This document shows positions 9,302 to 63,301 of a stretch of 64,000 nt of DNA, piece after piece (the stretch's first letter is position 1; each line of letters starts with the position of its first letter). The DNA is from an uncultured delta proteobacterium (GTDB lineage Bacteria > Desulfobacterota > Binatia > UBA9968). The notes beneath the pieces are model-generated. The model worked only from the letters and a program-made list of their open reading frames with translations. It was not told where the DNA came from and ran no database searches. A program made the position numbers and the translations under genes. The stretch spans positions 160,001 to 224,000 of the forward strand of contig CAVSHR010000002.1 of the NCBI GenBank assembly GCA_963727625.1, written 5' to 3'.

Positions 9302-10282
9302 ATGAGAAAAAAGTTTCTATGGTTTTCACTAATCGCTGTGCTTGGCGGGGTGGCAATTGCCCAGGCGCAGCAGCCAACGAGAGTCTCCCGGATAGGATTA
9401 TTAGCTGCTGTTAGCCCGGCCGCTTTGTCGGGCCGCGCCGAGGCGTTGCGCCAGGGTCTACGCGCTTTTGGGTATGTGGAAGGGAAAAACATTGTCATTG
9501 AATCTCGATATGCAGAGGAAAAACTCGAACGTCTCCCGGCGCTCGCAACCGAGCTGAGACGTCTCAATGTAAACATCATCGTGACGGCTGGTGCGCCAGC
9601 GACTCGTGCTGCCAACGAAGCAGGTAATCGAATCCCCATCGTCATGGCGCAGGATAACGATCCTGTTGGAAACGGGTTTGTCGAAAGCCTCGCACGACCC
9701 GGCGGCAATATCACGGGATTGTCCACACTTTCCTCCGAGCTGAGCGGAAAACGACTGGAGCTTCTCAAGGAGGTTGTTTCTAAGGTTTCCCGTGTGGCCG
9801 TGCTTGGCAATTCGGCAGTTCCGGGCAACGCGCTGGTATTAAAAGAGATAGAAATTGCAGCAGAGTCGTTCGGGGTCCAGATTCAATCCCTAGAAATAAA
9901 AGCGCCGGCAGATATTGAAACCGCATTCCGAGACGCGCGTAAGGGGCGGGCTGGCGCAGTCCTAGTACTGAACAACCCCGTCGTGTCCGCTCAGAGGAGG
10001 CGAGCTGCTGACCTTGCGGTAAAGAACCGCCTCCCGGCGATATACGAAAGATTAGAATATGTAAAAGATGGGGGGCTTATGAGTTACGGAGTAAGCAGTA
10101 CCGACTTGTTCCGTCGTGCCGCCACTTACGTGGACAAGATTCTCAAAGGCGCAAAGCCCGCGGACTTACCGGTCGAGCAGCCAACGAAATTCGAGTTCGT
10201 CATCAACCTAAAAGCCGCCAAACAGATCGGCCTGACGATTCCGCCCAACGTTCTGGCGCGGGCGGATCGGGTGATTCGGTGA
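9302..10282 (+). CDS. ABC_sub_bind protein, copy 6
   Basis: Full motif set; GGAGG upstream of ATG 9302. Confidence 0.92.
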   Translation: MRKKFLWFSLIAVLGGVAIAQAQQPTRVSRIGLLAAVSPAALSGRAEALRQGLRAFGYVEGKNIVIESRYAEEKLERLPALATELRRLNVNIIVTAGAPATRAANEAGNRIPIVMAQDNDPVGNGFVESLARPGGNITGLSTLSSELSGKRLELLKEVVSKVSRVAVLGNSAVPGNALVLKEIEIAAESFGVQIQSLEIKAPADIETAFRDARKGRAGAVLVLNNPVVSAQRRRAADLAVKNRLPAIYERLEYVKDGGLMSYGVSSTDLFRRAATYVDKILKGAKPADLPVEQPTKFEFVINLKAAKQIGLTIPPNVLARADRVIR

Positions 10283-10287
10283 CGGGA

Positions 10288-10632
10288 TTAACGCCCAAAA
10301 ACAATATCGATACCTGAGAGGATCAAATCGAGTTGGCGTTTGGACAGCTTGCCGACCTCTTCGGTGAGCAATGCACGGTCTAGGGTAATCAGCTGCGAGG
10401 TGTTTACGACTGAATCCTTTGGCAAACCTGTCGCTCTGGCAGACAGCAATACATTGCCCGGCGCTTCGGCCCAACGAAGATTGCTGGTTAGAGGTACGCA
10501 AACAACGGTTCTAATAAGGCTGCGATTAAGAGCGTCCCCTTGGACGACTAACACCGGCCGCCGAAAGCCGGGACCCGAACCGGTCGGTTCAGGTAGGTTC
10601 GCCCAATACACATGGCCTTGGGCGATTACCAT
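10288..10632 (-). CDS. PemK/MazF family toxin
   Basis: G.VYWANL.EP.GS.PG..RPVLVVQ.D..N, VPLTSN, GLPKDSV. Confidence 0.9.
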   Translation of the reverse strand: MVIAQGHVYWANLPEPTGSGPGFRRPVLVVQGDALNRSLIRTVVCVPLTSNLRWAEAPGNVLLSARATGLPKDSVVNTSQLITLDRALLTEEVGKLSKRQLDLILSGIDIVFGR

Positions 10633-10862
10633 TCGACATCTTCAAGTGTGCGTACCGCGGCGGCGGAAATGGCTGGGTCGGGGTAGTCAACCATCGCCTC
10701 GCAGACCCTATTCATCGCCTCAGTCACGGCATCTGGATCGTGACGAGCGACGTATTCGGTCACGGCTTCTGCATAAATCTGGCTTCGGGATTTTTTCAGT
10801 CGACGGGATAACCGCTCGGCATCTCGGAAAATCTTATCGGGGATGGAGATCGCAGTTTTCAT
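10626..10862 (-). CDS. Ribbon-helix-helix antitoxin (MazE6/ChpI-like)
   Basis: MKTAISIPD...SRSQIYAEAV; overlaps the toxin start; TATACT 6 nt before the ATG suggests a leaderless mRNA. Confidence 0.85.
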   Translation of the reverse strand: MKTAISIPDKIFRDAERLSRRLKKSRSQIYAEAVTEYVARHDPDAVTEAMNRVCEAMVDYPDPAISAAAVRTLEDVEW

Positions 10863-10920
10863 ACCCGCAGTATAACCAGCGGGACGACTGCGTGCAAATT
10901 CGCGTGCCTCCTCGTGAGTT

Positions 10921-11034
10921 CCGGTGCAGGGGGTCGATAAGGTCGATCTTGTCATCAATCTACAGGCGGCGAAGCAGATCGGCCTGACGATTCCCCCGAA
11001 TGTGTTGTCAAGGGCAGACAAGGTGATTAGGTGA
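10921..11034 (+). pseudogene. Orphan 3' end of an ABC_sub_bind gene
   Basis: PVQGVDKVDLVINLQAAKQIGLTIPPNVLSRADKVIR*. Confidence 0.85.
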
Positions 11035-11095
11035 GGGGTAAGTGAGTTAGGCGTTAGGCAAAAATTCAGGCGAGGCTAAAACAGGAGGGAACATC

Positions 11096-12091: not shown

Positions 12092-12138
12092 CGCGCTGCG
12101 GATTTTGAGACTCGCGATTTTGGATTGAGAGAAAATCC

Positions 12139-12426
12139 ATGAATAAAAACTTTTGGTTTCGAGCCCTGAATTCTTTGTTCGATAATCCAAAATCCAAAAT
12201 CCAGAAGCGGCCTCGCGGACTAAAATGGGTCAGGCTTTCGATGTTCGCTCGCGTCCTCGTGTTGGCTGGGGCTGTGGCACAGTCGCAACAGCCGAAGAAA
12301 ATTCCACGGACAGGGTATCCGTTGATTGATCCAACGAATGAATCTGCACTTGCCGAGGGCATTCGGCGGGCTTTCAACGAGCTTGGCTACGTTGGCGCGT
12401 CGCATCTGAATCTTGATCATCTCTAA
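12139..12426 (+). pseudogene. 5' fragment of an ABC_sub_bind gene
   Basis: AVAQSQQPKKIPRTGY...GIRRAFNELGYV then lost; preceded by AATCCAA heptamers. Confidence 0.7.
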
Positions 12427-12589: not shown

Positions 12590-15500
12590 ATGGCAAGCAC
12601 GACCAAAAAGGGCTCAAAGAACACCAAGACAAAGCCGCGCCGTGCCGTGGTGAAAACGTCGGCGGTTACACAAACGCGGCTGATTGCCGAGCTTCGCCAG
12701 CAACTCGCCCAGTCTTTGCAGCGAGAGAACGCGACTGCCAGGGAATTGCAAGACCGTAAGCGCGAACTTAACGACGTTTTAGCGCAGCAAAGTGCGACGA
12801 GTGAAATCTTAGGCGTGATCGCCAGCTCACCGAGGGATATCCAACCCGTAATGGATGCGATTGCCGAAAGCGCCGTGCGGCTGTGCGAGGCCAACGATGC
12901 GCTGATTTTCCGGGTAGAAGGCGATTCCTTGATACGCTTCGCTAATTTTGGCTCGCGCTCCCAGCAGAGCTTGGCGGCGGTCCGCTGGGAGGGATCAACC
13001 AGAGCTCAATACCCGGTCGAGCAGTGATCGGTCGAGAGATAATTCACATTCATGACCTGGCAGCGGTCCCAGAGGCCGAATTACGAGCGGTGTTTGCCAG
13101 ACGCGTTGGTGTGCGAACGGCGCTTGCAACGCCGCTGTTGCGAGACGGTGTCCCGATTGGGGTGATACTGATTCGCCGTACTGAAGTTCGACCCTTCAGT
13201 GAAAAGCAAATAGCGCTTCTCAAAACCTTCGCTGACCAAGCCGTTATTGCCATCGAGAACGTGCGCTTGTTCAAGGAACTCGGCGAGCGCAACGCGGAGT
13301 TGCGCGAGGCGCTGGAGCATCAGACGGCGACGGCCGAGGTGCTCGGCATCATCAGCCGCTCGCCGACGGACGTGCAGCCGGTGCTCGATGCCATTGTCGA
13401 GAGCGCGGCAAAAGTTTGCGGCATTGATGACGTGGTGCTGCGGCTCCACGAAGCCAACGCCATGGTGGTGCGGGCGCATTTTGGTTCGGTACCGGTAGCG
13501 GCTGGTCGCGAAGCGATCAGCATTGATGAACTACAGAATCAGTGGGTGCGCGAGCATGGGACACTCCACATCCCGGATATCCGTGCGCAGAGGATAGATT
13601 TCCCAACGATGGGTTCCATCTCGCGTACCTTTTTAATCGTTCCTCTCCGTCAGCAGGACCAACTCATAGGATTACTGGGTGCGCGCCGCACCGAGGTGCG
13701 CCCCTTCACCCCGGCGCAGATCAAGCTGATGGAAACCTTTGCCGACCAGGCGGTCATCGCCATCGAAAACGTACGGCTATTTCAAGAACTCACCGAGGCG
13801 TTGGAGCAGCAGACGGCGACGAGCGAAATTCTAGGCGTGATCGCCAGTTCGCCGACGGATATCCAACCGGTCCTCGATGCAGTCGCAGCGAGCGCGGCCC
13901 GGTTATGCGATGCCAAAGACGCTGTAATCTTTCGCCTCGATGACAACCATCTTCACCGCGTAGCAATTTGTGGAGAGATTCCGATGAGAGAGACGCCGCT
14001 GGCGCTCACCAGGGGCTCTGTGACTGGTCGCGCCGTGGTCGACCGCCGGGCGGTTCATATCCACGACGCCGATGCCGAATCCGAAACCGATTACCCAGAT
14101 ATCGATAGGACGGGAAATCGAGGCGGAAGTCGTTCCAGGACGAGACTGGCCGTACCACTGCTGCGCGAGGGTGTTGCCCTTGGGGCGATCATCGTTCGAC
14201 GTATGGAGGTTCGTCCATTCACAGAAAAGCAGATCAAACTGCTTGAAACCTTCGCCGACCAAGCTGTAATCGCCATAGAGAACGTCCGGCTGTTCAAAGA
14301 ATTGCAGGAGCGCAACGCGGAATTGCGCGAGGCGCTGGAGCATCAGACGGCAACTTCCGAGGTGCTCGGCATCATCAGCCGCTCGCCGACGGACGTGCAG
14401 CCGGTGCTCGACGCCATCGTCGAGAGCGCCGCGCGGGTTTGTGGGATCGATGACGTGGTGCTGCGGCTCCAAGACGGCAACGCTATGGTTTCACGGGCTC
14501 ATTTCGGTCCTTTAACCGTCAACCGCGTCGAGATCAGCATCAATGAGCCACAGTTTGGTTGGATGCGGGAGCATGGCACGCTTCACATTCCTGACGCCAG
14601 CGACCAGTCCGATTCACGGATGGTGGTTACCGGCGGCTGGCGGACTTTCCTGGTCGTTCCCCTTCGTCAGCAAACGGAACTGATTGGAGGATTGTTCGCA
14701 CGTCGTACCGAAGTTCGTCCCTTCACCCCGGCGCAGATCAAGCTGCTTGAAACATTCGCCGACCAAGCGGTCATCGCCATCGAGAACGTTCGGCTGTTCA
14801 ACGAGCTAAAGGAATCGTTAGAGCAGCAGACGGCGACGAGTGAAATCCTGGGCGTCATCGCCAGCTCGCCGACGGATATTCAGCCGGTGCTGGATGCCGT
14901 GGCGGAAAGCGCTGCGAAATTATGTAATGCTCCGAGCGCTTTCATTCAGCGCGTCGACGGTAACGTTATGCGACGAGTGGCGGCTTATCCCTATCCAGCA
15001 CCTCTTATAGGAGAAGAAACAGTTATAGATCGTACCAGGATTTCGGGCCGGGCTATTATTGACAGACAAACAATCCACGTCCAAGACATGGCCGCAGATA
15101 CGCAAAGCGAATTTCCCGGCGGCAGAAACATCCAACCAGTGACCGGTACACGCTCTGCTCTGGCAACGCCGCTGCTGCGAGAGGGAGTAGCCATCGGAGT
15201 TATTTTCGTGCGCCGAACAGAGGTCCGTCCCTTCACTGAAAAGCAGATCAAACTGCTGGAAACCTTCGCCGCCCAAGCCGTCATCGCGATCGAGAACGTG
15301 CGGCTATTCCAAGAGCTGAAAGAATCATTAGAACAGCAGACAGCGACGAGTGAGATCTTGGGTGTTATCGCAAGCTCTCCGACCGACATTCAACCTGTGT
15401 TGAATGTAGTCACCCAGAACGCAGCGCGCCTATGTGACTCGAGCGACGCGCAGCTTCGGCTGATTGACGGAAACCTCCTTCGTCTATTGGCCTCATATGG

Positions 15501-17577
15501 TCCGCTTCCAGTACCTGAGATAATACCCATTAGCCGCCAAACAGTGTCCGGCCGAGCTGTCACGGATCGACAAATGATCCATGTTCATGACCTGGAGCCG
15601 GAGCGCGAGACTGAGTATCCGGAAGGAGCAAGGGATGGGTCTCGAACAATCCTTGGCATGCCGTTAATGCGCGAGGGTGTTCCCATTGGAGCTGTTCTCA
15701 TTCGCCGACTTGAGGTCCGTCCTTTTACTGACAAGCAAATCGCACTCCTCACGACTTTCGCAGACCAAGCTGTCATCGCTATAGAGAACGTGCGGCTGTT
15801 TCAGGAGCTCACCGAAGCGCTGGAACAACAAACGGCGACGAGTGAAATCTTGGGCGTGATTGCCAGTTCGCCGACGAATATCCAGCCGGTGCTGGACACT
15901 GTGGCAGCCAACGCCGCGCGACTATGTGAGGCCGTTGACGCACAGATTCGCCTGGTAGAGGGTGACGGAACGCGGTTGGTGGCTTCCTTCGGAACCCTTC
16001 CAGCACCAGAGTTTCGGTCTTTGAAACCCACAAGTGTTTCTGGTCGGGCAGTTCTTAACAGAGAGAGTGTCCATGTTCACGATCTCCGTGAAGCCATGAG
16101 AACGGAATTTCCCGAAAGCGTCGTGGGTGCTCGCGTGGGAGCGGTGACGATGCTAAGTACACCGATGCTCCGGGAGGGAATTCCGATCGGTGTCATCAAT
16201 GTAAGACGAACCGAGCTTCGTCCCTACTCGGACAAACAAATCAAACTGCTCGAAACCTTTGCCGATCAGGCCGTGATCGCCATCGAGAACGTGCGGCTGT
16301 TCAACGAATTAAATGAGCGCACCAACGAATTGACTCGCTCGGTCGGCGAGCTCAAAGCCCTCGGCGAAGTCAGTCAAGCGGTCAGCTCGACTCTCGATCT
16401 CGAAACTGTCCTCACCCGCATCGTCTCCCACGCCGTTCAACTGAGCGGCACCGATGGTGGCGCGATTTACGAGTACGATGAACCTTCGGAAGAGTTTCAC
16501 CTGCGCGCCACCGATCACATGGAAGAGGAACTCATCACTGCCCTGCGCAATAATCCACCTCGCCTGGGCGACGGCATAGTCGGCCGGGCGGCGGCCAGCC
16601 GTGAACCGGTCGTGGTTCCCAATATCCTAGAAGAGCGCGCCTACGCCCCACGCATGCGCCAGATGCTGGAGCGCTTCGGTTTTCGTGCCAGCCTGGCAGT
16701 CCCCCTATTACGCGAAGACCGCATCATCGGCGGCTTGGTGGTACGGCGAAAAGCGATGGGTGAGTTTCGTCCCGAAGTCATCGAGCTATTGAAAACCTTC
16801 GCCAACCAGTCGGTGTTAGCGATCCAAAACGCCCGGCTGTTTCGCGAGATCGAGGAAAAGAGCCAGCAGATCGAAGCCGCCAACCGGCACAAGTCGGAGT
16901 TCTTGGCCAACATGTCCCATGAGCTTAGAACCCCGCTCAATGCCATTATCGGCTTCTCGGAGGTCTTGCAGGAAAAACTCTTCGGCGAGCTCAATGAAAA
17001 GCAAGCCGAATATACCGACGACATCCTCAGCTCCGGCCGCCATCTACTCTCACTCATCAATGAGATTCTCGATCTCTCCAAGGTCGAAGCCGGGCGCATG
17101 GAACTGGAGCTGGCGACCTTCGATCTCCCGATCGCCATCGACAACGCCCGCACCTTTGTGCGCGAGCGCGCCGCCACGCACGGCATCACGCTCGACGTCA
17201 CAATAGACGACCGCCTCGGTGACATCATTGGCGACGAGCGTAAGATCAAGCAGATCCTTCTCAACCTGCTATCCAACGCGGTCAAGTTCACCCCGGAGGC
17301 AGGCCGGATCGAGATCGCAGCAAGGCAGAGCGACGGCTCGGTGGAAATATCCGTCAGTGACACCGGCATCGGCATCGCGGCAGAGGACCAACCAAAAGTC
17401 TTCGAAGAGTTTCGCCAGGTGGGCTCCGACTATGCGCACAAGGTCGAGGGAACGGGACTGGGGTTGACGCTGGCCAAAAAATTCGTCGAGCTGCATGGGG
17501 GAAGGATCTGGGTGGAGAGCGAGGTGGTGAAAGGCTCGACGTTTGTTTTTACACTACCGATTGCGGCTGTCGCATAG
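12590..17577 (+). CDS. Cytoplasmic histidine kinase with 8 tandem GAF domains, HisKA and HATPase (frameshift near 12960)
   Basis: Seven ATxE(I/V)LG.I..SP.(D/N).QPV repeats plus a terminal GAF; ANMSHELRTPLNAI H-box, N box NLLSNAVKFT, DTGIG, GTGLGL. Confidence 0.9.
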
Positions 17578-29340: not shown

Positions 29341-30588
29341 ATGATTCAATATGCACCGAAATTGACTTACGGTCCTGAGGTTGCCGATTGGCAGGAGCGG
29401 CTCAACCCGGAGCGCATGCGCCGATTGCGATTCGAGCGCGCTCAGATGATCATGCGCAAGCATGGCATTGCGGCGATCCTCGAGGCCAATCATCAAAACA
29501 TCCGCTATCTCACGGCGCTCAAGGGCTTTGCCTATCCCATGGTCCGCTACGTGCTTTTCTTCGCCGAGCATGATCCGGTGATGTACGAGCACAACGGCTA
29601 CTATCACCAGATGCCCGACCAGTGCCCATGGATCAAAGAGTGGCGTCCGGCGCGCTCTTGGCTCACCGGCGCGCCGGGGCCGGAAGCCTGCGCCCTGGAA
29701 GCCAAGGCGTTTGCCGGCGAGATCAAAGCGGAGCTCGAAAAGCGCGGCTTACTCGGCGAGAAGCTCGGTCTCGGCAGCTTCGACGGTTATGCGCGCGAGG
29801 CGCTGGTCAACGCCGGCGTGAAAAACATCGTCGATACCCGCCAGCTCATGCTCGAAGCGCGCATGGTCAAGAACCAGGACGAGATCGCCTGCTTGAAGAC
29901 CTGCGCCGCCATGGTCGACGGCGTGTGGTTTCGCATGTGGGAAAATTTAAAACCGGGAATGAGAGACACCGACTTGATGACCTTGGGCTCCACGGCCGGC
30001 TATGAGATCGGTCTGGAATCGGCGGTGCCGGGCGGCTGGCGCACCGGTCCGATGACCTTCGACCGCGGGCCGCATGCCACCAGCCGGATCATTCAGTTCG
30101 GCGATTTGATGTACGGTTCGTATTGCGGCGCGACCTATATGGGTTACGGCAGTTGCACCTATCGGACTTTTATCGTCGGCCGCCAACCAACGCCGAAGGA
30201 AAAAGATTGGTACAAAGTGATGCGCGAGCGGATCGACGCGATCATCGGCGAGATCAAGCCGGGAAAGACCACCGCCGACGCGGCCAAGCATTTTCCGCCG
30301 GCGAGCAAATGGGGTTACAAGAGCGAAGTCGAAGTGCTCGCAAGCGAGATCGGCCACGGCATCGGCCTGGGTACGAGCACAGGCTATGACGTGCCGATCA
30401 TCAACCGGCTCTGGTCGCTGGATCATCCGCAGGTGTTCGAAGAGGGGATGACCCTGGCCGTCGAATGCCGCGAAGGCGAACATCGGGTGGGCGGTGTGCG
30501 CCTGGAGAACATGATGGTGGTGACCAAGAACGGCGCCGAGATCATGGACTATTTCCCGCGCGAAGAGATCCTGATCGCGCCGCGGTGA
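29341..30588 (+). CDS. M24 (Xaa-Pro peptidase-like) family protein
   Basis: NIRYLT, ARMVK..DEI, GHGIG, GMTLAVE, GVRLEN; GGAGG RBS. Confidence 0.88.
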   Translation: MIQYAPKLTYGPEVADWQERLNPERMRRLRFERAQMIMRKHGIAAILEANHQNIRYLTALKGFAYPMVRYVLFFAEHDPVMYEHNGYYHQMPDQCPWIKEWRPARSWLTGAPGPEACALEAKAFAGEIKAELEKRGLLGEKLGLGSFDGYAREALVNAGVKNIVDTRQLMLEARMVKNQDEIACLKTCAAMVDGVWFRMWENLKPGMRDTDLMTLGSTAGYEIGLESAVPGGWRTGPMTFDRGPHATSRIIQFGDLMYGSYCGATYMGYGSCTYRTFIVGRQPTPKEKDWYKVMRERIDAIIGEIKPGKTTADAAKHFPPASKWGYKSEVEVLASEIGHGIGLGTSTGYDVPIINRLWSLDHPQVFEEGMTLAVECREGEHRVGGVRLENMMVVTKNGAEIMDYFPREEILIAPR

Positions 30589-30713
30589 CCCGCCGCAACT
30601 GCGGCGCGATTCTTAGCGATTAGAATTGAGCCGCGCTGTGATCCGAATTGCTAACCGGGCGGCGCGCCGCGGTGTCGCAATCACGGAAAAGCTACCAACG
30701 CCCGTCTCAAACG

Positions 30714-30827
30714 TCAGACCGTTATCGCTTGCTGGTCGTTTCCTACACCGAGAGGCCGCCGAGAACGCGAATTATTAGCGCTCGGCTGGCAGCTCGAAAA
30801 GAACGAAAACAATATGAAGAAAAGTAA
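30714..30827 (+). pseudogene. 3' half of a BrnT-family toxin
   Basis: SDRYRLLVVSYTERPPRTRIISARLAARKERKQYEEK*, overlapping the antitoxin start. Confidence 0.8.
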
Positions 30828-31065
30828 AAAGAAACCCCGGCCATCGGACTTTGACGAAGACACGATGCGACCTGAATACGATTTCTCAAAGGCGGTCCGT
30901 GGTGTGACGGCGGCACGGTACGCGGAAGGTACCAACGTCGTACTTCTCGACCCAGATGTTGCAGAAATCTTTCCTGATACTCGTGCAGTTAACGAAGCAT
31001 TGCGTACGATGGCACGCGTGACGCGCACAACTTTGCGACAGCGCGTTCGCAAACGCACTGCATAA
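30814..31065 (+). CDS. BrnA-like antitoxin
   Basis: MRPEYDFS...RG...VLLDPDVAEIFPD..AVNEALR. Confidence 0.8.
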   Translation: MKKSKKKPRPSDFDEDTMRPEYDFSKAVRGVTAARYAEGTNVVLLDPDVAEIFPDTRAVNEALRTMARVTRTTLRQRVRKRTA

Positions 31066-31119: not shown

Positions 31120-31897
31120 GGACTAGTAGCACGCCAGATCCGAGGAGTAAGAAATTGAAAGTTTGGCTGACGTAGCGGCTATGACGGTTGTTCATGTTCA
31201 GGCGAGCGACGCGGTTCAGTCAGTTAATGGCGGGCCTATCTCGAATCCGTTCGTCGGCACCTGGCTGATCACTGAAACGTCCGTGCATGCGGGGCGCCGC
31301 CGAACAACTGGCGCGGGTCCGCGTCGGTGGGCGGTGTGCGCCTGGAAAACATGATGGTGGTGACCAAAAACGGCGCCGAGATCATGGATTATTTTCCGCG
31401 CGAAGAAATTTTGATCGCGCCGCGGTGACCCGCCGCAACTGCGGCGCGATTCTTAACGATTAGAATTGAGCCGCGCTGTGATCCGAATTGCTAACCGGGT
31501 GGCGCGCCGCGGTGCCGCCCGGCCGCCGCGTGCATTCCCTTCGACGAATTCCACCTGCACGATTCCGGCGCAAACCGCATCGATATTTTCCGTCAAAGTT
31601 TTGATGCCGGGTAAAGATACCATCGATAATCGGTTGTACCGCAAGGCGACCACGATGATTGACGATCAAGTGATCTGCGTTGCGAACGCAATCGACCAAC
31701 TGATGACCTTTCAGCTCACTCCTGCGGGAATATTGTGGCCGAAATAGGCCGCCGTTCGTTAGTCCAGATAACCCGCCGCCCTGGCGGCTTTTGCCGGGAA
31801 ACGAAACATTGACACATTGGGGTAGCTGGCTGATATTGCAACCGATTTGGATTTTATTGGCGGAACCATTGCCGGGTTAGGCGGTAATCTGACCGTG

Positions 31898-38989: not shown

Positions 38990-39008
38990 CTTTTGTTCTC
39001 GCGAGAGA

Positions 39009-39524: not shown

Positions 39525-39722
39525 TTAATTTCCGTCGGACTGTATACGCTACTCGTCGTAAGATCGGTGTCAGGCATTTATATAATTTCCGGGGACATAG
39601 TACCAATTTTACATCGTGCCCAAGCTTTCCAGGCTTCTAACAAAGTCCGTGGTTTTCGTGCCCATCCTCGTTTTCCGGTTTTTTCAAACCCTCTGCAGGC
39701 GGCGCTCAATAGTCGCGTGATA

Positions 39723-39941
39723 TTACGCTCTGCTTCCAGGCCCGCGGGAAGTCGGTTTGTTTTCTTTTGTAATCCTGATGAGAAAGCGCAGTGCTTCATT
39801 CACCGCGTCCGCCGTTGGGAACGCTTCTGCAACGTCAGACTCTAGACGGACCACCGAGCCTCCGAAACTCTTTCGACCAGGGCCAAACCGGCGGACCGGC
39901 AAACTCTTGAGGTCGTATTCTGGCCGCAACTTATCTGCCAT
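39723..39941 (-). CDS. Orphan BrnA-like antitoxin
   Basis: LRPEYDL...VRLESDVAEAFP.ADAVNEALRFLI; paralog of 30814..31065. Confidence 0.75.
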   Translation of the reverse strand: MADKLRPEYDLKSLPVRRFGPGRKSFGGSVVRLESDVAEAFPTADAVNEALRFLIRITKENKPTSRGPGSRA

Positions 39942-39997
39942 AACTACTCTACCCTATAGAAGTAATCGGGAGCGTAAAAATCCACGTAGAGTTATCC
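39938..39997 (-). mobile_element. Weak attC-like site
   Basis: Minus strand GGATAAC-tctac ... gtagagta-GTTATGG, 60 bp, 4 bp after the toxin stop. Confidence 0.4.
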
Positions 39998-40001
39998 GAC
40001 T

Positions 40002-40340
40002 TTACCGCACAAGATAGTCGCTTAACGTTTTGAGAAGCTTTTTATGCCTCGCAGCAGTAATGAAGCCGATGGATCCGGCAATTCTGCTACTGGGCAATAC
40101 GGCCAGAAATCCGAGCCTCACCAATGATTCTGATTTCAAACCGGTTGACGTGAAATCCGGGTCGGAAGGTGAAATGACTTCGTCGAAGTCTTTGACCTGC
40201 TGATGCAGTTGCGTGCTTACGCCACAGACAAGAAAATCCTTGTAGGGTGGCATCTCGCGTAGGATTACTGCGGGTCGGGTCTTGAGGGTCCCGTCAGCTT
40301 GAGGAACCGGAGTGAGAATTACGTCGCCTTCCTTCATCAT
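40002..40340 (-). CDS. PemK/MazF-like toxin
   Basis: GDVIL.P.PQ.DG..K.RPAVIL, VCGVST, TGLK.ES.VR. Confidence 0.85.
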   Translation of the reverse strand: MMKEGDVILTPVPQADGTLKTRPAVILREMPPYKDFLVCGVSTQLHQQVKDFDEVISPSDPDFTSTGLKSESLVRLGFLAVLPSSRIAGSIGFITAARHKKLLKTLSDYLVR

Positions 40341-40563
40341 ATTCAGGATTCGCCTCCCTGATGGAATCTAACGAATACTCCTCCTCGTTAGGGGCGTAAG
40401 CATTTTCGAGACCCGATCCAGATAGACGCGACCATGAGTCATGATCGGCGTCATGATTCCCTAACACGGTAACAATAAGTTTGGTATTTGGTTCCAGCTC
40501 GACGGGCTCGTCCAAAAGTATGCGTTCGCCGTCAAAATGAGCGGGAATTGAAACGTTACTCAT
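40294..40563 (-). CDS. Putative cognate antitoxin
   Basis: IPAHFDG..I.LDEP..L.PNTKL.VT; upstream of and overlapping the toxin; GGAGG RBS. Confidence 0.7.
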   Translation of the reverse strand: MSNVSIPAHFDGERILLDEPVELEPNTKLIVTVLGNHDADHDSWSRLSGSGLENAYAPNEEEYSLDSIREANPEYDEGRRRNSHSGSSS

Positions 40564-40690
40564 GATTTAACCTCCGGCGTTCTCCTAGCATTTATTCCGT
40601 GCTGATTCTCCGATGCATGAAGCCCATACTTTCTCATTGACCCAAGGTAACACGTTTTTCGAAACGAGGGTATTGTCAACAGCATTGTGG

Positions 40691-40796
40691 GCTCAACGCA
40701 ATGGGTCAAATAGCCGTCGTGGCACTTCCCAACCGTTGATAAATTTCCGTCGCTAAAATCTCGCATCGCGGTCTGCTCGAACCGCGCTTGATGGCG
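40691..40796 (-). mobile_element. Degenerate attC-like site
   Basis: Minus strand CGCCATC-aagcgcgg-ttcgagcagaccg ... cggctatttgaccc-attgc-GTTGAGC, 106 bp, 9 bp after a TGA at 40806. Confidence 0.5.
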
Positions 40797-46510: not shown

Positions 46511-47012
46511 TCCGTTTGCGAAGAGCGCTTCGAGCGCTTGGGCGTTGCTTGTTTCTGTGTTCACGAGGATGGTAAAAATTTGCCCACCTTGACTGTCAAT
46601 AGGCGCTGGGCTTGCCAATCAGCGCTGTGCTTACGGGGTCCAGCAGCGAAGGAACGCCTGGCGGTTCTTCTCAAAGCTCCTTGCCTGCGCGTCACAGTGA
46701 AACGCGATCGCGTTTGAATTTGATCGCATCCTTTGCAGTGTCAATGCAAAGCTCTTGACCGAACTTATAGAAGGTGGACGATAACCCTGTACGCGATGCT
46801 AATCAGAACCATCCCGCTCCATCGAGCTCTACAAACACGTCGGCGCATGGTTGGCGAGGCTCGATGGGTGGGCGAAGGAGATATGCAGTAGGGGACTTGA
46901 ATTTTCCACCCGAGTCGCGGCATTATCGCCGCTTCGGCGCCCGTGGGTTGTCTAACACCAAGGGATTGGCTTTAGGCTGTGAAGCAACAGGATCAAAAAG
47001 GAGGATAAAGCA

Positions 47013-52730: not shown

Positions 52731-52763
52731 GTTAGAGAGACCGGCGACCATCCTCGGTCAGCG

Positions 52764-56741: not shown

Positions 56742-57014
56742 CTAGGCGACGTCGAGTAGAGCGCGTGGATTTTTGCTCGCGATCACGAGCAAAGTTCTTG
56801 CTGCGCCCGACGGGGCTCGGCGACCCTGCTCCCAATCTTGCAGAGTACGAACCGAAACACCGAGTAACTGGGCAAATCGTGCTTGAGAAAGCTCGGTCTT
56901 CTCGCGAATGCTTGCGATGTCGGGAACATTGATGACACGCCCGTGGTCACCGCGCTTGATTTCGCGGAGGCCATCGAGGATCTCTTGTCCGATATTCCGT
57001 TTGGTTTTAGCCAT
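56742..57014 (-). CDS. HigA-2/NadS-like HTH antitoxin
   Basis: IREKTELSQARFA.LLGVSVRTLQDWEQGRRAPSGAA. Confidence 0.9.
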   Translation of the reverse strand: MAKTKRNIGQEILDGLREIKRGDHGRVINVPDIASIREKTELSQARFAQLLGVSVRTLQDWEQGRRAPSGAARTLLVIASKNPRALLDVA

Positions 57015-57320
57015 CTTCGACTTCCTTTCGAATTTGCCGCAACACATGGGCTGGGATGCTCTCGGCAACATTTTTTGGATATATCGTGAGCCTCCAGATT
57101 AACCCTTGTTTCATCTTGACGTAGTAATCACTCGATACCCGCCGCGTTTGCCGCGACCAGCAGCGCGCCAGCGAAGCTTCCGTAAGCCTCCCGAGCCGGG
57201 CACGATATCACCGGATGCAGGTCTGCGAATCAACTCATCTTGCAGGGCGCGATATTCATCATCGCCCAGATATTCTTGAACCAGACGAGTAAACAACCGA
57301 GTCTCAATAAAACTGAACAC
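57007..57320 (-). CDS. RelE/HigB-2 family toxin (1-nt frameshift near 57127)
   Basis: FIETRLF, GDIVPGSGGLRKLRW...GKRGGYRVI; continues YVKMKQGLIWRLTIYPKN...EDG* in another frame. Confidence 0.85.
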
Positions 57321-57326
57321 TTAAAG

Positions 57327-57482: not shown

Positions 57483-58456
57483 TTACGGATAAAGTTCCGT
57501 GGGTTGAGTTTGCACTTTTTCCAATTGCAGCGCGAGCCCTTCGATTTGCTCCTGCCAATAGTGCTCGGTGCCGAAGTCGGGAAACGCCATTTGGAAAGCG
57601 CTGTCTTCCCAGCGGCGCGCGATCCACGCGGAAAAGTGAATCATGCGAAGCGCCCGCAGCGGCTCGATGAGCTGCATCGTCGTCATGTCGAAAGTTCGGA
57701 ACTCTTCGTACGCTTCGAGCAGGATCTCCCTTCGCTCTTTGCCGTACGCGTCGTCTCCGCCGGTGAGCATCCAGATGTCTTGAACGGCAGGCGCGTAGAG
57801 CATGTCGTCGAAATCGATGAAGTACGGATCGTCTCGATTCCACAAAATATTTCCGCAGTGGCAATCGCCATGGAGAGAACGTATTCGACGTCCTCGAAAC
57901 GAGGGATCATCGCGTCGCAAATTTGCGTTACGATCGTTTCGAAGCGACTGGCGAGCTGCATCGGAATGAAGTTTCCGTCTATTAAGAACTTTAAAGGGTC
58001 TCGCCCATAAGTTTGAGGATCAAGCCGTAATCGAGGGGCGGCTTTTACCGTTGCCCCGACGTTATGAAGGCGAGCCATGAACCTTCCCAGGCGCGTGAGC
58101 TGTTCCGTAGTCAGTTCCGCCTCGAGTCGCCCCGGACGCTTCGGGAAGATGGTGAACATGACTTCATTGATCTCGAAAATACTCTGTCCCTGGTCGTCGG
58201 CGAGCGGGCAGACCACCGGGATTTCGTGTTCTTCGAGGGATTTGAGAAAGTCGTGCTCGGCCTGAATCGTGGCGCGGCTCCAGCGGCCGGGGCGGTAAAA
58301 TTTGATGACGACGTGCGGGCCTTCTTCCATCTCGATGTCGTAGACGCGGTTTTCCAGCGCATTGAGCGCGTAGATTCGGCCGGTGCAGCGCCCGCCCAAT
58401 GTCTCGGCGGCGTCGAAAATAGCCTCGGGAAGAATCTGCAAGAAGTTGTCTAACAT
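57483..58456 (-). CDS. srkA: Stress response Ser/Thr kinase SrkA/RdoA (frameshift near 57875)
   Basis: LNALENRVY, KFYRPGRWS, HGDCH.GNILW, IDFDD, AVQDIWM, EPLRALR..H.SAWIARRW.D.AF. Confidence 0.85.
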
Positions 58457-58589
58457 AGACTTCATCCTAGACGAGCGCTGATGCCTTGTACACTGCGGCG
58501 GGCGGGGCCTGAGTTTTTCTGCGTATGATGGGCGACTCGGCGGTGCGGATCCCTGCGGATTCAGGTCGCCGTGGAGCCGAGTCTCCAGC

Positions 58590-58828
58590 CTAAGGGCTGC
58601 CAAAGCCTTGGAGTTTTCCGTCGGGTGTTCTAACGACATGCTTTAGCGGCGCCCCCGAAAGATAGCGGCGCGTATTGTCGCGAAATAGCTCGGCCATCCG
58701 GCGCCACAATCCCCGCCCGCCCACATGGGGCGTCATCAGCAGGTTGGGGAGATCCCAGAGCGGGCTCGCCGCAGGCAACGGTTCTTGGGCGAAGGCGTCG
58801 AGCCCGGCCGCATTGATGCGGCCATCGT
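58590..58828 (-). pseudogene. Duplicated 3' end of the D-2-hydroxyacid dehydrogenase gene
   Basis: GLDAFAQEPLPAASPLWDLPNLLMTPHVGG...; matches 62299-62547 with a 9-bp deletion. Confidence 0.9.
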
Positions 58829-58925
58829 CAGGAATCTCGTTACAGGATTATTTTAGCTTCAGGTAGCTGCTAAATTCCTATGGTAGACCCTCATCACGTG
58901 ACCTTCGCCAAGGAAGGCAGCGTGT

Positions 58926-61638
58926 TCACGAAGCGCATGGTGGTGAGCTGACTTTGTTTTTCTCCCGTAATCGCTCGCGCAGCAAGGCTCCCAGCACCTT
59001 GGCGTTTTCACCGCTCAACATATCTCCAGAGTCTTTACCCGGGACTTGATGCAGTTCAGCTCTGCCGTCCCATAAGGTCGCCCAGTCGAAGTTCTCCAAT
59101 TTGATCTTGCGCGGATGTTCGGATACGAAGATTTCCAATGCTCTTAACCGACCTTTGAGCTTCTTCGGTTGGTGATTTCGCCCCGCTCTTCTACTCGCAT
59201 TAAACACCGCCAGTTGGTGCCTTTCTCGATGAAGCGCTCGGCGCCCTTTACTATCTGTAAGCGTTCGAGCTAGAGATCTGGCTTTTTGGGTGAGGAATTT
59301 GACCCGCTCGAAATTATTTAGACCCCGCATCTCATCGAGATACAATTGCATGCGAGTAGAGAGGAAACCGCCCGGCTGCTCCTGATTCGAGTTTTTGGTT
59401 TCGGAGGGCCCGGGGCTCTGGTTTCGCACAAGTCCGATCGGATCCAGCAATCCGAGAAAACCAATCTCTTCACCCGCTTCGAGCAGTTGGTGGGCCATCT
59501 CGAAGGTTACCCGCGCACCAAAGCAAGCACCGATCAGGATGTAAGGGCCGTGCGGTTCACTGTCGGACTTCGGTGGAAAGCGCTCGGCCATGGCCTCCAC
59601 GCTATCGATGGCACGTTCTTGGCCGTCCAATCCAACCGACTGCAACCCGTAAAAGGGCCGGTCTTTGCCGAGCTCCCGGCAAAGGTCGAAGAACCCGACA
59701 ACGTTACCGTAAACTCCGGGCACCGCAAAGATCGGGGGCTGTTCGCCTGCTTGGGTAAACGGCACTAGCGCCGAGATCTTCTCGGGCTCTGCGGCACTGC
59801 GGAAATGAATGGCCAACAATCCTATGGTCGGGGAATCCACGAGCACGCTAAGCGGCAACAAACGGCCGAATTCGTCATCTAGCCGGGTGAACAATTGAGA
59901 GGCTAAGAGGGAATGACCTCCGAGATCGAAAAAGTTGTCGTCGATGCCGACAGGAATTGTTACACATCAAGTGTTTAAAACCAGATATTAACGAGTCGTT
60001 TCTCGATTTCATTGCCGGCCTCAACATATGCCTTTCCTAATTCCGGCCGGCGGCGGTCTGGTTTAGGCAGCGCTCTGCGATCCAGCTTGCCGTTTGTCAA
60101 TGGCAAGGATTCCATAAATACAAACGCGGACGGTATCATATAGTCGGGCAAGCTTTGTCTCGAAAATAGGCATTGATGTCAGTTACGGTAGGCGCCGGAT
60201 CACCACGAAGAACGACGTAGGCAGTTAGGTACTTGTCTCCGCTTGGACGATCAAACGCCAGGACCGCCGACTGTTTAATTTGCGGATGTTCCGATAGGAC
60301 CGCCTCCACTTCGCCAAACTCGACCTTCGCTCCTCTGATCTTGACTTGGTTGTCTTTGCGACCCAGGTGAAGAAAGCAACCATTTGGTATCATCCGGCCA
60401 AGATCTCCGGATAGATACAGCCGCTCATCGGTATTATCTCTGCTGCGTAAGAATTTCTCGCTCGTAAGTCCCGAGTCGTTCCAATATCCAGTAGATAAAT
60501 AGCGGCTGGCGACGGCGAATTCGCCAATGCAGTTCGTGTCAACTTCATTGCACGCGTCATCAACCAGAAGGACCTTCTTATTGGCAACCGGATAGCCAAC
60601 CGGAACAATCGCGGAATCGATCATTGTGTCTTTTGATATCCAGTATTGACAAATATTCCCCATTTCACTAGCCGACAATTGATTGAGAAGGATGCAGTTT
60701 GGAGCAAAATGCGACTTATAAAGATTAACATCCGCTCTAAACAATGGCTCGCCGCCAAGCTTGATTAAACGAAGATGCGGAAATGTCTCATGTTGCCCAA
60801 GTTCTTGAGCAAAGTAACGGAAAATCGATGGAGTAGCGAGGAAATAGGTAATTTTCTCGGCGCGCAAAAACTCGCCCAGACCCTGAACCCCACGCTCCTT
60901 AATGTCGTAGGGAAATATCGCCGCCCCGGCCATCAAACTCTTGAATGTATCACCGGTATTAAAACTCAAGCGCCGTAGAATGATTAAGCGGTCTTCTGGA
61001 CAAAGAGCAGTGCGATTGCTGAGCGACATGTAGCTGAACAGACTTCGGCGATGGTTACGAATTACTCCTTTTGGCCGTCCACTCGAACCCGATGTGTACC
61101 GAATGATCGCCGGATCGTCAGGTGCGCGTTTTAGGCTCAGGTTGTCGATGGAAATGTCGCTACCCAGTGCATCGACGTTGATCATCGAGCGATTTCGATT
61201 TACCAGATGAGCGGCGATTTTAATGTTATCACCGTATGTAAGAACAGCCTCCGCTCTTGAATCATCAGTCATGAACTTCAATCGATCGATCGGAAACGAC
61301 GGGTCCGCTGCGACCATGATTTTTCCCGCCTTCAAAGCTCCGAGACATGCTATGATTGCCTCTGGGCGGTGGTCGGTCAGTACCATCACGGGACTTAGGT
61401 TATCGCCGCAATTTTGGAGGATTGCACGAGCAACGCGATTAGCAGCGCGGTTTAGCTCGTCATAGGTTAACGCGATATTCCTAGCCTTCAGTGACAAGCA
61501 ATTCCCGTAAAGTTGCACGATTTTCTCAAACCTTGCTGGAATTGATGCCTCGACATCCTCTTTGGGAAACTCGACAAACGTTCCGGAGGGGTGAAAACAC
61601 TTGGCTCGTGTAGCTACTTGTTCTGGCGGTAAATTCAC
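58926..61638 (-). CDS. Stand-alone NRPS-like protein, A-PCP-TE (several frameshifts between about 59560 and 60150)
   Basis: [66 protein letters not shown]. Confidence 0.85.
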
Positions 61639-62298
61639 GCTGCGAACCTCACCGACAAAAACATTTATGTTCCGGTTGTGCGACCATGACCTAAATGGGA
61701 TTTTTACACGACTCTCCTGCCGACATGCAAGGCTAGAAACTGCAAGCCGATTGCGCCTTAGAATTAAAGTAGTTTGTGGGAATTCGCGGTTAAAAAACCG
61801 TCTTGAGAACTTGCGAAGGAAGAGTCCGGAGTCATGGAAAACCCCGAAAACTCAGAAATTGTGACACCGCTCCGGGGATCACCCATCAGATTCAAGGCCT
61901 CGGAGCTATTCCCATCGCGAGGGGAGATTTGGCGTCGATCCTGCGAGTTGACTTATGGAGGGTTCCTAGCTGGATTGGTCCAACCGCCGCGAAATTCTTT
62001 TGATGCGTGATTTTCAAAGTGGTGTCATTTAAATCGACCAGCGACTGAGGCTTGATCAAGGCTAGGGTTTTTCCAGCTGTTTCCAGGTTTCGAAGTTAAC
62101 CCGATACCGGCGGCAGAAATGGTTACGATAACTTATTCTCCGACACAAAACCTTGTTCAGCCCAGCCTCGGCCCTGGTAGTCGCTCCCGATCATGTGGCG
62201 CAGCTCGTCACGACTCAATACGATGGCCGCGCCAACGCCGGTAGGGAGCGTTGCGCTCAGCGAATGCTCCGGGAGCCAGTCATCTTTGAGTCGCCAGC

Positions 62299-63301
62299 CT
62301 ATGGATTTCCATAGTCGTTAAGCATCCCATCGGGTGTTCTGACGACGTGATTTGAGGGGCGCGCCCGAAAGATAGCGGCGCGTATTGTCGCGAAATAGCT
62401 CGGCCATCCGGCGCCACAATTCCCGCCCGCCTTGCCCGCCGACATGGGGCGTCATCAGCAGGTTGGGGAGATCCCAGAGCGGGCTCGCCGCCGGCAACGG
62501 TTCCTGGGCGAAGGCGTCGAGCCCGGCACCCATGATGCGCCCCTCGGCGAGAGCGCGCGCCAGCGCCGCTTCGTCGACCACCTTGCCGCGCGAGATATTC
62601 ACGAGGACCGCCGTCTCTTTCATGCTGGCGATCCGTTCAGCGCTCAGAAATCCCCGAGTGCTGTCGTCGAGCGGCATCGCCACCATGACCACATCCGCCG
62701 AGGGGAGAACTTCATCCACCTTTTCCCTGGGTACCACGCGGTCGATCTCGGGCGCGGCGGGGACGGGGGCGCGGGTGACGCAGATCACTTCCATGTCGAA
62801 TGCCTTGGCCTTGCGCGCGATGTCCTGGCCGATGCGGCCCATGCCGAGGATCACCATGCACAGTCCGTCGGGTGCGATCATGAAGTGGCCCATTGCCTCC
62901 CGCGCGTAATTCCGCTTGGCGCGCAGCGGCTCGAACCGGCGAAAGCCGCGCATCACGCCGAGCATCAGCGCGATGGCGTGCCCCGCCAGCACACTCTGAC
63001 TGACGCCGCCGGAGTTGGTGATCCAGACACCGTCGGGCAGCCCCACCCTCAATGCGACATCGATGCCGACGGTGGTGAACTGAATCCATTTGAGGGCTCG
63101 CCCCTGGTCGCGCACCAGCTTGGCGAACTCGGGGGTGAAAGCGGAATTATAGGCTACGAGCACTTCCGCGCCGTCGAGCGCTTCGGCCAGGAACTCCAAG
63201 CTATCGGCCTTGACCGCCTCGACCTCGGGAAATTCCCGCAGGAAAGCGTCATCCACTAAATCGTGGGTGGCGCGCACATACTGGACAATGCGAAGTGTCA
63301 T
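62299..63301 (-). CDS. D-2-hydroxyacid dehydrogenase
   Basis: GMGRIG, NISRG.VVDE, DAFAQEPL, TPHVGG; the true stop is probably 62299 after a 1-nt indel near 62351 (ORF track ends 62318). Confidence 0.9.

Follow-up and report, generated by a model that had tools for sequence, protein, structure and literature searches.

Orphan gene ends beyond foreign cargo in a Binatia genome: possible scars of homology-anchored recombination

Described systems with displaced gene ends

In rhs loci, orphans consist of a near-identical core fragment and a dissimilar tip, and come with low-GC cargo (2009, PMC2935791). The C-terminal displacement behind them keeps the gene body, adds a new end together with low-GC cargo, shifts the old end downstream as the orphan and involves no integrase, after which the orphans decay via frameshifts. 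In each of these respects it resembles a 2-hydroxyacid dehydrogenase locus in the window studied here (i.e. the whole stretch of 64,000 nucleotides that was analysed, from an uncultured bacterium of the Binatia). The rhs-type orphan structure, a near-identical fragment with a dissimilar former tip, is present at that locus, as are two features of single-crossover and rhs-type events, namely direct repeats that flank the insert and cargo of foreign composition behind the new tip. There are also differences: rhs genes encode polymorphic toxins, whereas the hosts here are ordinary metabolic enzymes; the cargo (toxin-antitoxin (TA) remnants and an NRPS-like pseudogene) is functionally unconnected to the new tip; each locus has a single orphan instead of a long array; Binatia relatives are affected at 5' ends as often as at 3' ends; and the new dehydrogenase tip is out of frame.

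For the displacement of T6SS effector-immunity genes a route resembling homology-facilitated illegitimate recombination (HFIR) has been proposed (Kirchberger et al. 2017, PMC5361080), in which DNA without homology joins at a conserved upstream anchor and moves the earlier downstream gene along instead of removing it, as is the case here. That model retains whole immunity genes under selection, whereas the piece retained here is a useless gene end. In an E. coli test, single crossovers with circles were behind 56 of 60 duplication clones (109-950 bp; Amarir-Bouhram et al. 2011, PMC3240628). There too the homologous segment is directly duplicated around the insert (86-280 bp here), although the homology in that laboratory plasmid system is identical, while here the partners had diverged and the insert has since decayed. 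HFIR proper predicts deletion of the recipient DNA between anchor and joint, whereas recipient sequence is duplicated here. A similar order of parts (intact gene, foreign element, displaced C-terminal copy) is known from e14 in icd, where the displaced icdC pseudogene differs mainly conservatively; e14 is described as a 15 kb element with its own site-specific recombination system (PMC13626634), in contrast to the inserts of 0.3-3.5 kb found here, which have no recombinase. Finally, short orphan tails directly upstream of the next paralog occur in a known tandem-paralog system, as they do in the substrate-binding-protein (SBP) array of the window and in the related contig L065, but the unit of that system arises by crossing-over at a conserved central region and the SBP array shows relics alone.

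The original prediction had regarded the recurrent gene-end duplications as the strongest candidate for an undescribed process. The rhs and T6SS displacements follow the same logic, and the integrase-free gene-end scars would be a process of known type that reveals no new machinery. Literature searches on Binatia with TA systems and on direct repeats around TA modules brought up no printed description of the pattern in Binatia.

The M24 peptidase and dehydrogenase loci

The gene for an M24-family peptidase (29341..30588, + strand; Pfam PF00557 and PF01321) is resident and intact. Its last 103 nt and the following 90 nt (copy A, 30486..30678, +) recur after a spacing of 647 bp as an orphan end (copy A', 31326..31518, +), in which the stop codon is kept and the frame is open; in the self-blastn and repeat search of the window the two match over 193 bp with 94.8% identity (E 1e-82). 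The cargo in between begins ~35 nt past the end of copy A with a 5'-truncated brnT toxin fragment (30714..30827, +; Pfam PF04365, profile positions 48-77 of 77, E 2e-6), a match that stays under the curated Pfam cut-off because only a fragment is left. Behind it, in the position of an antitoxin, lies a small ORF (30814..31065, +) that has no family in Pfam or NCBIfam and is putatively labelled 'BrnA-like'; a second copy, 51% identical, is found at 39723-39941(-), and relatives are present in the Binatia contigs L022 and L058. At the far end of the cargo, an ORF at 31181-31324 has no Pfam or NCBIfam match and no longer homolog was found for it (which is weak evidence).

The two M24 copies differ at 10 positions, 7 of them coding and all synonymous (0 nonsynonymous), and their end peptides are identical. 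The binomial probability of this 7:0 bias is 7e-4 under a model of a gene plus a dead copy, 4e-5 under neutrality and 0.0056 under a model of GC-to-AT transitions only. Synonymous divergence amounts to 0.30, but only 3 of the 90 noncoding sites differ (Fisher p 5e-4).

The D-2-hydroxyacid dehydrogenase gene (62318..63301, -; Pfam PF02826) is likewise resident, and carries a +1 frameshift ~60 nt ahead of its original stop. Its end (62288..62576, -) is composed of a diverged start, a ~190-nt near-identical block and an atypical 16-codon tip, with the frameshift exactly at the boundary between block and tip; the frameshift could be an assembly error. An orphan end ~3.4 kb away (58579..58857, -) has an open frame with its stop codon in place, a family-typical tip and a 9-nt in-frame deletion. 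Self-blastn and the repeat search align 58579-58827 with 62288-62546 (259 aligned columns, 84.9%, E 7e-79), and the duplicate extends to about 58857/62576, i.e. about 260-280 bp in total at 85%. Directly adjoining the resident end is the 3' fragment of an aldehyde:ferredoxin oxidoreductase-type (AOR) gene (62129..62293, -; Pfam PF01314, positions 330-380 of 385, E 3.6e-5, below the cut-off), for which the PDB gave weak hits at the C-terminal end of 1aor_A and 9mqx_D (E 0.6-0.9). The cargo further includes an NRPS-like adenylation-carrier-thioesterase gene (58926..61638, -; Pfam, and NCBIfam TIGR01733 and NRPS models), which is broken into at least 3 ORFs with GC3 values of 0.50 and 0.61, in a part of the window (59-62 kb) where GC dips.

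Over 71 codons the dehydrogenase ends show a pN/pS of 0.18, with 8 of 22 changes being nonsynonymous (p 2e-4 against neutrality, 0.014 against the mixed model). Identity is strongly uneven along the copies, with a pS of 0.14 in the block versus 0.76 in the tip (Fisher p 3e-4), and such mosaic identity points to recombination. Both copies share the residues 'AELF', which occur in 0 of 120 orthologs. In 117 of 120 comparisons with orthologs the orphan tip is the nearer one (mean identity 80%, versus 64.5% for the resident tip); being family-typical, it is therefore the typical tip that has been displaced, and the atypical one now stands beside the low-GC cargo. Given the mostly synonymous differences and the open frames, the orphans at both loci functioned as gene ends until recently, through most of the time in which they diverged. 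The M24 mosaic is reversed relative to that of the dehydrogenase, its noncoding end being near-identical and its coding part diverged. The conserved 90-nt M24 3' region was also considered as a dispersed repeat, which was rejected, as no further copy exists in the window or in 80 related loci.

In codon composition the cargo is foreign (GC3 0.49-0.61, versus 0.75-0.80 in native genes), and three kinds can be distinguished: mazF with an upstream small ORF (see below), the brnT 3' fragment with its small ORF, and the adenylation-carrier-thioesterase gene. No integrase, transposase or recombinase family was found by Pfam among the 223 ORF translations of the window (76 + 34 + 113), as had been predicted, and the same ORFs contain no integron integrase near the cargo. 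The predicted TA modules or remnants and NRPS-like gene are thus among the cargo, but the attC-bearing cassette fragments are not: a scan for consensus R''/R' hairpins with folding gave 0 attC sites, where each of 10 shuffled sequences gave 0-5 (it was a crude scan with no calibrated attC model, by which weak sites may be missed), and neither Rfam (at the gathering threshold and at E<=5) nor an inverted-repeat search returned anything relevant. With no attC site found, the idea that the same route scattered integron cassettes is not supported. In the window, no tRNA or tmRNA targets were found.

The SBP array and related contigs

The third locus of the original prediction is different in kind. 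An array of PF04392 SBP genes spans 3669-10282 and ends with its last complete gene, SBP6 (9287..10282, +; Pfam), whose stop lies 5 nt from that of a mazF/pemK-type toxin gene (10288..10632, -; Pfam PF02452, E 1e-24). The toxin gene is overlapped by 7 nt by a small ORF upstream of it, in the antitoxin position (10626..10862, -), for which Pfam and NCBIfam gave no family match. Together, the PemK/MazF-fold toxin and its small overlapping partner are predicted to form a type II TA module. Beyond it lies an orphan SBP 3' tail of 38 codons with an open frame (10918..11034, +; Pfam PF04392, positions 257-293 of 293, E 2.4e-5), and the duplicate around mazEF measures ~115 bp (10191-10286 versus 10943-11038, 76%, E 4e-12 in the self-blastn and repeat search). 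This tail is about equally similar to several SBP paralog tails.

The predicted further tails inside the array are there as well, both of them upstream of the next SBP gene: one at 6903..7037 (+), directly ahead of that gene, and one of 14 codons at 8134..8175 (+). The array also contains frameshifted and stopped copies, and where the window has it, the related contig L009 has only SBP tail and head relics. The SBP tails are relics of birth-and-death turnover in a decaying tandem paralog array into which mazEF was inserted, a different cause from that of the M24 and dehydrogenase duplicates. An orphan SBP 5' head at 12115..12426 (+; tblastn), which matches an SBP gene behind an NMT1-type (NMT1_a) gene in L065 (tblastn), means that the remnants in the window are not all 3'.

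With regard to the layout proposed for all three genes (an intact gene, foreign cargo and a diverged copy of its 3' end), the duplicates are real, with measured lengths of ~115, 193 and about 260-280 bp where about 114, 193 and 250 bp had been given. Two elements of it do not stand: the 'intact' dehydrogenase gene is frameshifted, and the SBP orphan is not a copy of its neighbour's own tail. A synonymous bias, for which the original prediction had proposed a test, is present at both the M24 and dehydrogenase loci.

Beyond the 64 kb of this genome, 1.2 Mb of relatives was examined. A direct-repeat survey of 80 related loci (1.22 Mb) yielded 46 direct-repeat pairs, of which 5 are gene-end duplicates around an insert. 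Two of these are at 3' ends: in L017, the tail of a ChsH2-type OB gene is followed by phd and PIN genes and an orphan tail, and in L032 the same gene tail is repeated with a spacer of 290 nt. The other three are at 5' ends, with a hyuA promoter and head, DUF433 and DUF5615 genes and an intact hyuA in L033, a Sir2 head, an MFS gene and an intact Sir2 in L022, and a thiolase head, SBP relics and an intact thiolase in L009. The L022 duplicate is again a mosaic, its first 4 codons being diverged and the following 86 nt 98.8% identical. The original prediction took 3' ends as the rule and itself named equally common 5' duplications as the contrary outcome; with three of the five at 5' ends, the 3' specificity falls. 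In a protein-level orphan screen, spurious GC-rich ORFs produced so many low-identity N-terminal matches that only those of >=60% identity were used (the raw 109:33 count being discarded).

Across the seven cases in the window and the relatives, the duplicates have sharp boundaries, lengths of 86 to about 280 nt and repeat identities of 76-99%, and the cargo measures 0.3-3.5 kb. No motif or core is common to the junctions of these seven, and no junction microhomology is evident, the outer boundaries sharing at most 0-1 nt by eye. A scan of genome contigs with a hydantoinase B query, spanning the mazEF and M24 loci, showed no empty site or donor; the nearest genomes in it have 85-93% protein identity (none closer than 93%), and M24 orthologs in relatives are 73-76% identical and have other neighbours.

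Recombination route and competing origins

It seems, with a probability of roughly 0.5, that both main loci (M24 and dehydrogenase), and the similar cases in related Binatia contigs, are scars of additive recombination that was anchored by homology and later eroded by deletions. The route, the kind of molecule that came in and the sequence of steps are inferred as follows. Foreign DNA would have arrived with a diverged copy of the resident gene's end, and RecA-type recombination within the most similar stretch would have joined it to the chromosome while the resident copy was kept, leaving the gene to finish in one of the two end copies and the other cut off on the far side of the cargo. Deletions and frameshifts could then have eroded the cargo down to a disrupted NRPS-like gene and remnants of TA modules, which are hard to lose. 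The DNA may have entered as a circle, through the single crossover suggested for the displacement of rhs C-termini, or in linear form with one illegitimate end (HFIR-like), between which the data do not discriminate. An integrase-free route anchored by homology, as originally predicted, thus fits the M24 and dehydrogenase loci, though not as strict HFIR, since recipient sequence is duplicated and not deleted.

The near-identical blocks beside diverged ends (in the dehydrogenase and in L022) fit a homologous anchor, but later gene conversion would look alike; in fact, it could yield either the M24 or the dehydrogenase mosaic, which counts against the homology-anchored explanation. A further point against it is that both main cargos start with a 5'-truncated foreign gene (brnT and AOR) right behind the resident end, which a single homologous event does not explain; the donor would already have to be scarred, or a deletion would have to follow. 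The lack of evident junction microhomology, and of an empty site or donor in the contig scan, also speaks against it. If the explanation is true, small accessory genes, and TA modules especially, enter an abundant uncultured soil phylum by plain homologous recombination at ordinary gene ends, and the logic of C-terminal displacement extends beyond polymorphic toxin loci. Orphan gene ends would then be datable scars, allowing gene gains to be counted and dated genome-wide without mobile-element markers. A bolder variant, which is improbable, is that gene-end fragments in Binatia act as portable homology arms, with repeat-flanked cargo popping out as a circle and re-entering the orthologous gene elsewhere by a single crossover. 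This would amount to integrase-free, RecA-only mobility for TA modules and other small cargo at both 5' and 3' ends, and the start shared by the L017 and L032 orphans would be the fixed end of a travelling arm.

That shared start (both orphans begin at the identical nucleotide of the orthologous gene) is less suggestive of random joints than of common ancestry or of site-specific recombination. It is in keeping with an unlikely origin from e14/icd-type elements that integrated site-specifically and then decayed, or from cis-mobilizable remnants: an element with a surrogate gene end would have inserted into the gene, and its integrase would since have been deleted or would act in trans from elsewhere in the genome. 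The layout equals icd - e14 - icdC (PMC13626634), the new tip adjoins the cargo with the typical tip displaced, the truncated genes at the cargo edge fit internal deletions, and one Binatia relative (L049) does contain a tyrosine integrase. However, neither the 223 ORF translations of the window nor the cargo of the five related cases includes an integrase or a fragment of one, the cargo is merely 0.3-3.5 kb, the junctions share no core, and duplicates that carry a promoter and first codons (L033, L022 and L009) are unlike the usual surrogate-end design. Moreover, homologous exchange would still be needed for the 86-190 nt stretches of near identity, which carry lineage-specific residues.

Two functional copies would also account for the synonymous-only divergence, which raises the question of whether the orphans are remnants of an additional full-length gene copy (a segmental duplicate or paralog) that was lost by deletion, with the cargo being unrelated. 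This is clearly true of the SBP array, and in L017 a pair of short upstream segments likewise recurs beside the orphan. For the other loci it is rather improbable: gene bodies and upstream regions leave no trace in the M24 or dehydrogenase cargo, the cargo is foreign in composition, and a diverged tip next to a near-identical block is unexpected for a duplicate made within the genome.

The sharp boundaries and variable lengths of the duplicates (86 to about 280 nt), the genes cut at cargo edges and the range of repeat identities (76 to 99%) could also be explained by a one-step foreign insertion that generated a long target duplication in place (by a staggered break with end joining, or by replicative template switching), followed by drift. 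A dead copy should then gain nonsynonymous changes, whereas the M24 copies have 0 of 7 and the dehydrogenase a pN/pS of 0.18; identity should not be so strongly non-uniform along the copies, nor should the family-typical tip be on the orphan instead of the resident gene, all of which makes this origin very unlikely.

Least likely of all is that strain variants of one locus were joined in one contig of a metagenome-assembled genome. In favour of this, the relatives are all such genomes (so that the window probably is one too), the copies differ as strain alleles would and the window has several frameshifts. Against it, the junctions of cargo with orphan and of gene end with cargo are unique sequences, for which a real genome has to be the source (chimerism would do no more than unite them on one contig), the longest exact stretches between copies are ~40-55 nt as judged by eye, an assembler would not mistake copies of 76-85% identity for each other, the layout recurs in five other assemblies with contig names of differing style, and the frameshifts cluster in cargo and paralogs, with the long native genes intact.

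Whether the orphans are retained as promoters of the downstream genes was considered for the M24 and dehydrogenase loci, and this was rejected, as a consensus scan gave no promoter-like site inside either orphan; the sole good promoter-consensus site in that scan is at 31809-37, beyond the M24 orphan.

Gene-end duplications at the M24 and dehydrogenase loci

The window has a G+C content of 57% and is rich in genes for solute-binding proteins, hydantoinases, luciferase-like oxygenases and enzymes of similar kinds (Pfam). Self-blastn and a direct-repeat search upheld the position and size of the three duplications on which the original prediction was built. Their host genes, assigned by Pfam, are an M24 peptidase gene (30486-30678 versus 31326-31518; 193 bp, 94.8% identity, E 1e-82 in self-blastn), a D-2-hydroxyacid dehydrogenase gene (58579-58827 versus 62288-62546; 84.9% over 259 columns, E 7e-79 in self-blastn, reaching ~280 nt on closer alignment) and the last gene of a PF04392 array of substrate-binding proteins (SBP; 10169-10286 versus 10921-11038; 76%, E 4e-12). 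The observed succession of gene end, cargo and second gene end is real, with the corrections given below.

At the M24 locus, the alignment shows that copy A comprises the gene's final 103 nt and the 90 nt that follow, and 647 nt separate it from the orphan copy, A'. In the cargo between them, a 3' fragment of a brnT toxin gene (positions 48-77 of the 77 in the Pfam profile) begins ~35 nt past the end of A. Its stop codon is covered by an 83-codon ORF that occupies the antitoxin position and matches no family in Pfam or NCBIfam; a second copy of this ORF, 51% identical, lies at 39723-39941 on the minus strand and is not preceded by a toxin gene. The last 260 nt of the cargo contain an ORF running into A', for which family and homolog searches found no relatives. 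A and A' differ at 10 sites, nine of which have G/C in A and A/T in A'. Seven of the ten are in the coding part and all seven are synonymous (p = 7e-4 under a mix of gene and dead copy, and p = 0.0056 even with GC-to-AT transitions alone allowed), which makes it unlikely that A' has been dead since its origin. Moreover, synonymous divergence is 0.30 versus only 3 differing sites among 90 noncoding ones (Fisher p 5e-4), and the repeat is therefore a mosaic.

The second copy of the 83-codon ORF is part of a low-GC stretch (0.50) of co-oriented small genes on the minus strand (38444-40766), which looks like a cassette array and also contains a VOC/glyoxalase-type gene, a 171-codon ORF of no family, and a mazF-type gene (40002-40340) with an overlapping upstream ORF. 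Neither an attC site nor a gene-end duplicate was found in this stretch, and the proposed link to attC-bearing cassettes is not upheld, as no attC site was found.

At the dehydrogenase locus all parts are on the minus strand. The gene end is followed by a 3' fragment of an aldehyde:ferredoxin oxidoreductase (AOR)-type gene (Pfam positions 330-380 of 385, E 3.6e-5, and weak similarity to the C-terminal ends of two AORs of solved structure), a featureless stretch of ~490 nt, an adenylation-carrier-thioesterase gene split over at least three ORFs (ORF layout, NCBIfam; GC3 0.50-0.61 versus 0.75-0.80 in native genes), and the orphan dehydrogenase end. Beyond the orphan lies an SrkA/RdoA-type serine/threonine kinase gene (57483-58465), frameshifted into two halves (model positions 4-192 and 197-325 of 327). 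Further along (56742-57320, minus strand), a 69-codon ORF weakly similar to RelE (E 0.04), apparently truncated, comes before a NadS/MqsA-type HTH antitoxin gene (56742-57071).

In the sense direction the two dehydrogenase copies begin with ~20 diverged nt, followed by ~190 nt at 94-95% identity (pS 0.14, pN 0.008), and finally a 16-codon tip at 74% (pS 0.76, pN 0.18), the contrast at synonymous sites between block and tip having a p of 3e-4. Over its whole length the pair departs from neutrality (pN/pS 0.18), and the orphan frame is open, with its stop codon at the homologous place. The polarity of the changes was set by 120 orthologs (79-87% identity). Both window copies share the motif AELF, found in none of the 120, while three codons of the GGxGG motif, present in all 120, are missing from the orphan. 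In 117 of 120 comparisons the orphan tip is nearer to the orthologs than the resident tip (mean identity 80% versus 64.5%), which means that the family-typical tip is the displaced one. The resident gene now has an atypical tip adjoining low-GC cargo, and a single additional base where block and tip meet, which may be an assembly error, puts this tip out of frame.

Recurrence in related genomes

A genome scan with hydantoinase B (20066-22345) as query yielded 80 loci, mostly labelled Candidatus Binatia or 'Deltaproteobacteria bacterium' MAGs, none of them from an identical genome (top protein identities 93% in L062 and 90% in L065) and with gene order near hydantoinase B shared in part. A screen of these loci (1,215,845 bp) for direct repeats (length 60-450 bp, identity 78% or more, spacing up to 12 kb) gave 46 pairs, which were sorted by gene context: 19 were tandem or internal, 10 intergenic repeat elements, 7 SBP-array, 2 IS3 fragments and 5 gene-end duplicates around an insert, with a further 3 (in L070, a second pair in L017, and a perfect 121-nt repeat in L022) assigned to no class.

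Two of the five gene-end duplicates are at 3' ends, both of the same ChsH2-type OB-fold gene. Between gene and orphan, L017 has genes for a phd antitoxin and a PIN toxin, and L032 has a 290-nt spacer, its orphan being decayed. The other three are at 5' ends: the hyuA promoter plus 17 codons, DUF433 and truncated DUF5615 genes, and intact hyuA (L033); ~30 codons of a Sir2 gene, an MFS gene, and the intact Sir2 gene (L022); and the promoter plus ~25 codons of a thiolase-like gene, SBP relics, and the intact gene (L009). With five cases in 80 loci, at both gene ends, the layout is common in the lineage and not tied to 3' ends, so that the proposed 3'-end specificity falls. Counting the three window cases, the cargo is a toxin-antitoxin (TA) module in four of eight. 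The Sir2 pair of L022 is a mosaic like that of the dehydrogenase, with four diverged codons at the start and 98.8% identity over the 86 nt that come after. The orphans of L017 and L032 share their start point within the gene to the nucleotide, with unrelated cargos, and each is at least as similar to its own genome's gene as to the other orphan; the common start could reflect a preferred site, or common ancestry followed by conversion.

Several of these loci show other features. In L017, two short stretches of the intergenic DNA upstream of the OB-fold gene recur directly before the orphan tail with their order swapped (7381-7431/8998-9050 and 7457-7511/8893-8952), and may be small dispersed repeats taking part in rearrangement. 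The 121-nt repeat of L022 (1565-1685/1786-1906, period 221 nt) lies downstream of the M24 ortholog, in an ORF whose product has a glyoxalase-like domain. L033 has an AAA_21 ATPase gene and a DUF4276 gene (4978-6764), a candidate defence pair, immediately upstream of the duplicated hyuA head. An intergenic repeat of 60-125 nt occurs upstream of hydantoinase A, hydantoinase B and one other gene in several Binatia relatives (L030 1652-1745, 7456-7576, 9848-9972; L053 6377-6461, 9816-9900; L056 2945-3006, 9910-9974), and may be a shared leader or regulatory element.

Origin of the duplicated gene ends

Selection on the orphans until recently and their mosaic identity together exclude an on-the-spot copy that never functioned, and require that two functional versions of the gene end, already diverged, exchanged sequence. 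The simplest account is that foreign DNA, either circular or linear, would arrive with its own copy of the gene end and be added by homologous recombination in the most similar stretch. Later decay by deletion is indicated by the two gene remnants on the edge of the cargo (brnT and AOR, both truncated), by the fragmented NRPS-like gene and by the 9 nt missing from the orphan. TA genes may resist deletion.

The homology-anchored route of the original prediction is thus retained as the best explanation at hand for the M24 and dehydrogenase loci, but not for the third, the SBP locus, where tandem-array turnover applies. According to PMC3240628, homology-facilitated illegitimate recombination proper leads to deletions, and a single crossover with a circle gave, in the laboratory, duplications of 109-950 bp, just such as these. 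The natural outcome is described for rhs genes in PMC2935791, where a near-identical core fragment and the old tip are stranded behind low-GC cargo, and a similar displacement is proposed for T6SS modules in PMC5361080. With these precedents, the claim of an undescribed process is not upheld.

Later gene conversion possibly had a part in the mosaic identity. A recombinase acting in trans is possible as well. No common core is visible at the junctions, and integrase, transposase and recombinase families had no match in three Pfam scans of the window (76, 34 and 113 translations). There are also no tRNA genes in the 64 kb. The lineage does have classical mobile elements, as a complete Binatia-like chromosome (L049, 15775-21039) carries a tyrosine integrase gene with an Arm DNA-binding domain, adjoining IS3-family transposase fragments. 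Assembly chimerism could in principle bring junctions together on one contig, but the unique junction sequences cannot arise from it.

The SBP array and its surroundings

The SBP locus is a different matter from the other two, namely birth-and-death turnover of a tandem array into which a TA module was inserted. The array (3669-10282) consists of six paralogs, at least three of them frameshifted or stopped, with orphan tails directly upstream of paralogs at 6903-7037 and 8134-8175. Past the stop of the last SBP gene come a complete mazF gene (E 1e-24) with an overlapping upstream ORF and then an orphan tail of 38 codons, which is no more similar to its neighbour's tail than to other SBP paralogs. 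There is also a 5' head of an SBP gene (12115-12426), whose counterpart in L065 is the SBP gene after an NMT1-type gene. L065 has an orphan SBP tail of its own, and in L009 only two tails and one head are left in place of the array. This is near the unit-of-evolution picture of Tsuru and Kobayashi (PMC2568036), with an inserted TA module in addition.

Another orphan tail may be present at 46818-46886 (plus strand), judging from 23 residues resembling the C-terminus of the TAXI-type binding protein (52% identity, E 1e-4), ~130 nt before the start of the gene for that same protein. Finally, a histidine kinase of 1517 residues with eight GAF domains is encoded at 13024-17577 (plus strand) by a gene with internal DNA repeats of ~510 nt at 65-90% identity, and the ORF just upstream (12590-13027) also has a GAF-like repeat unit.
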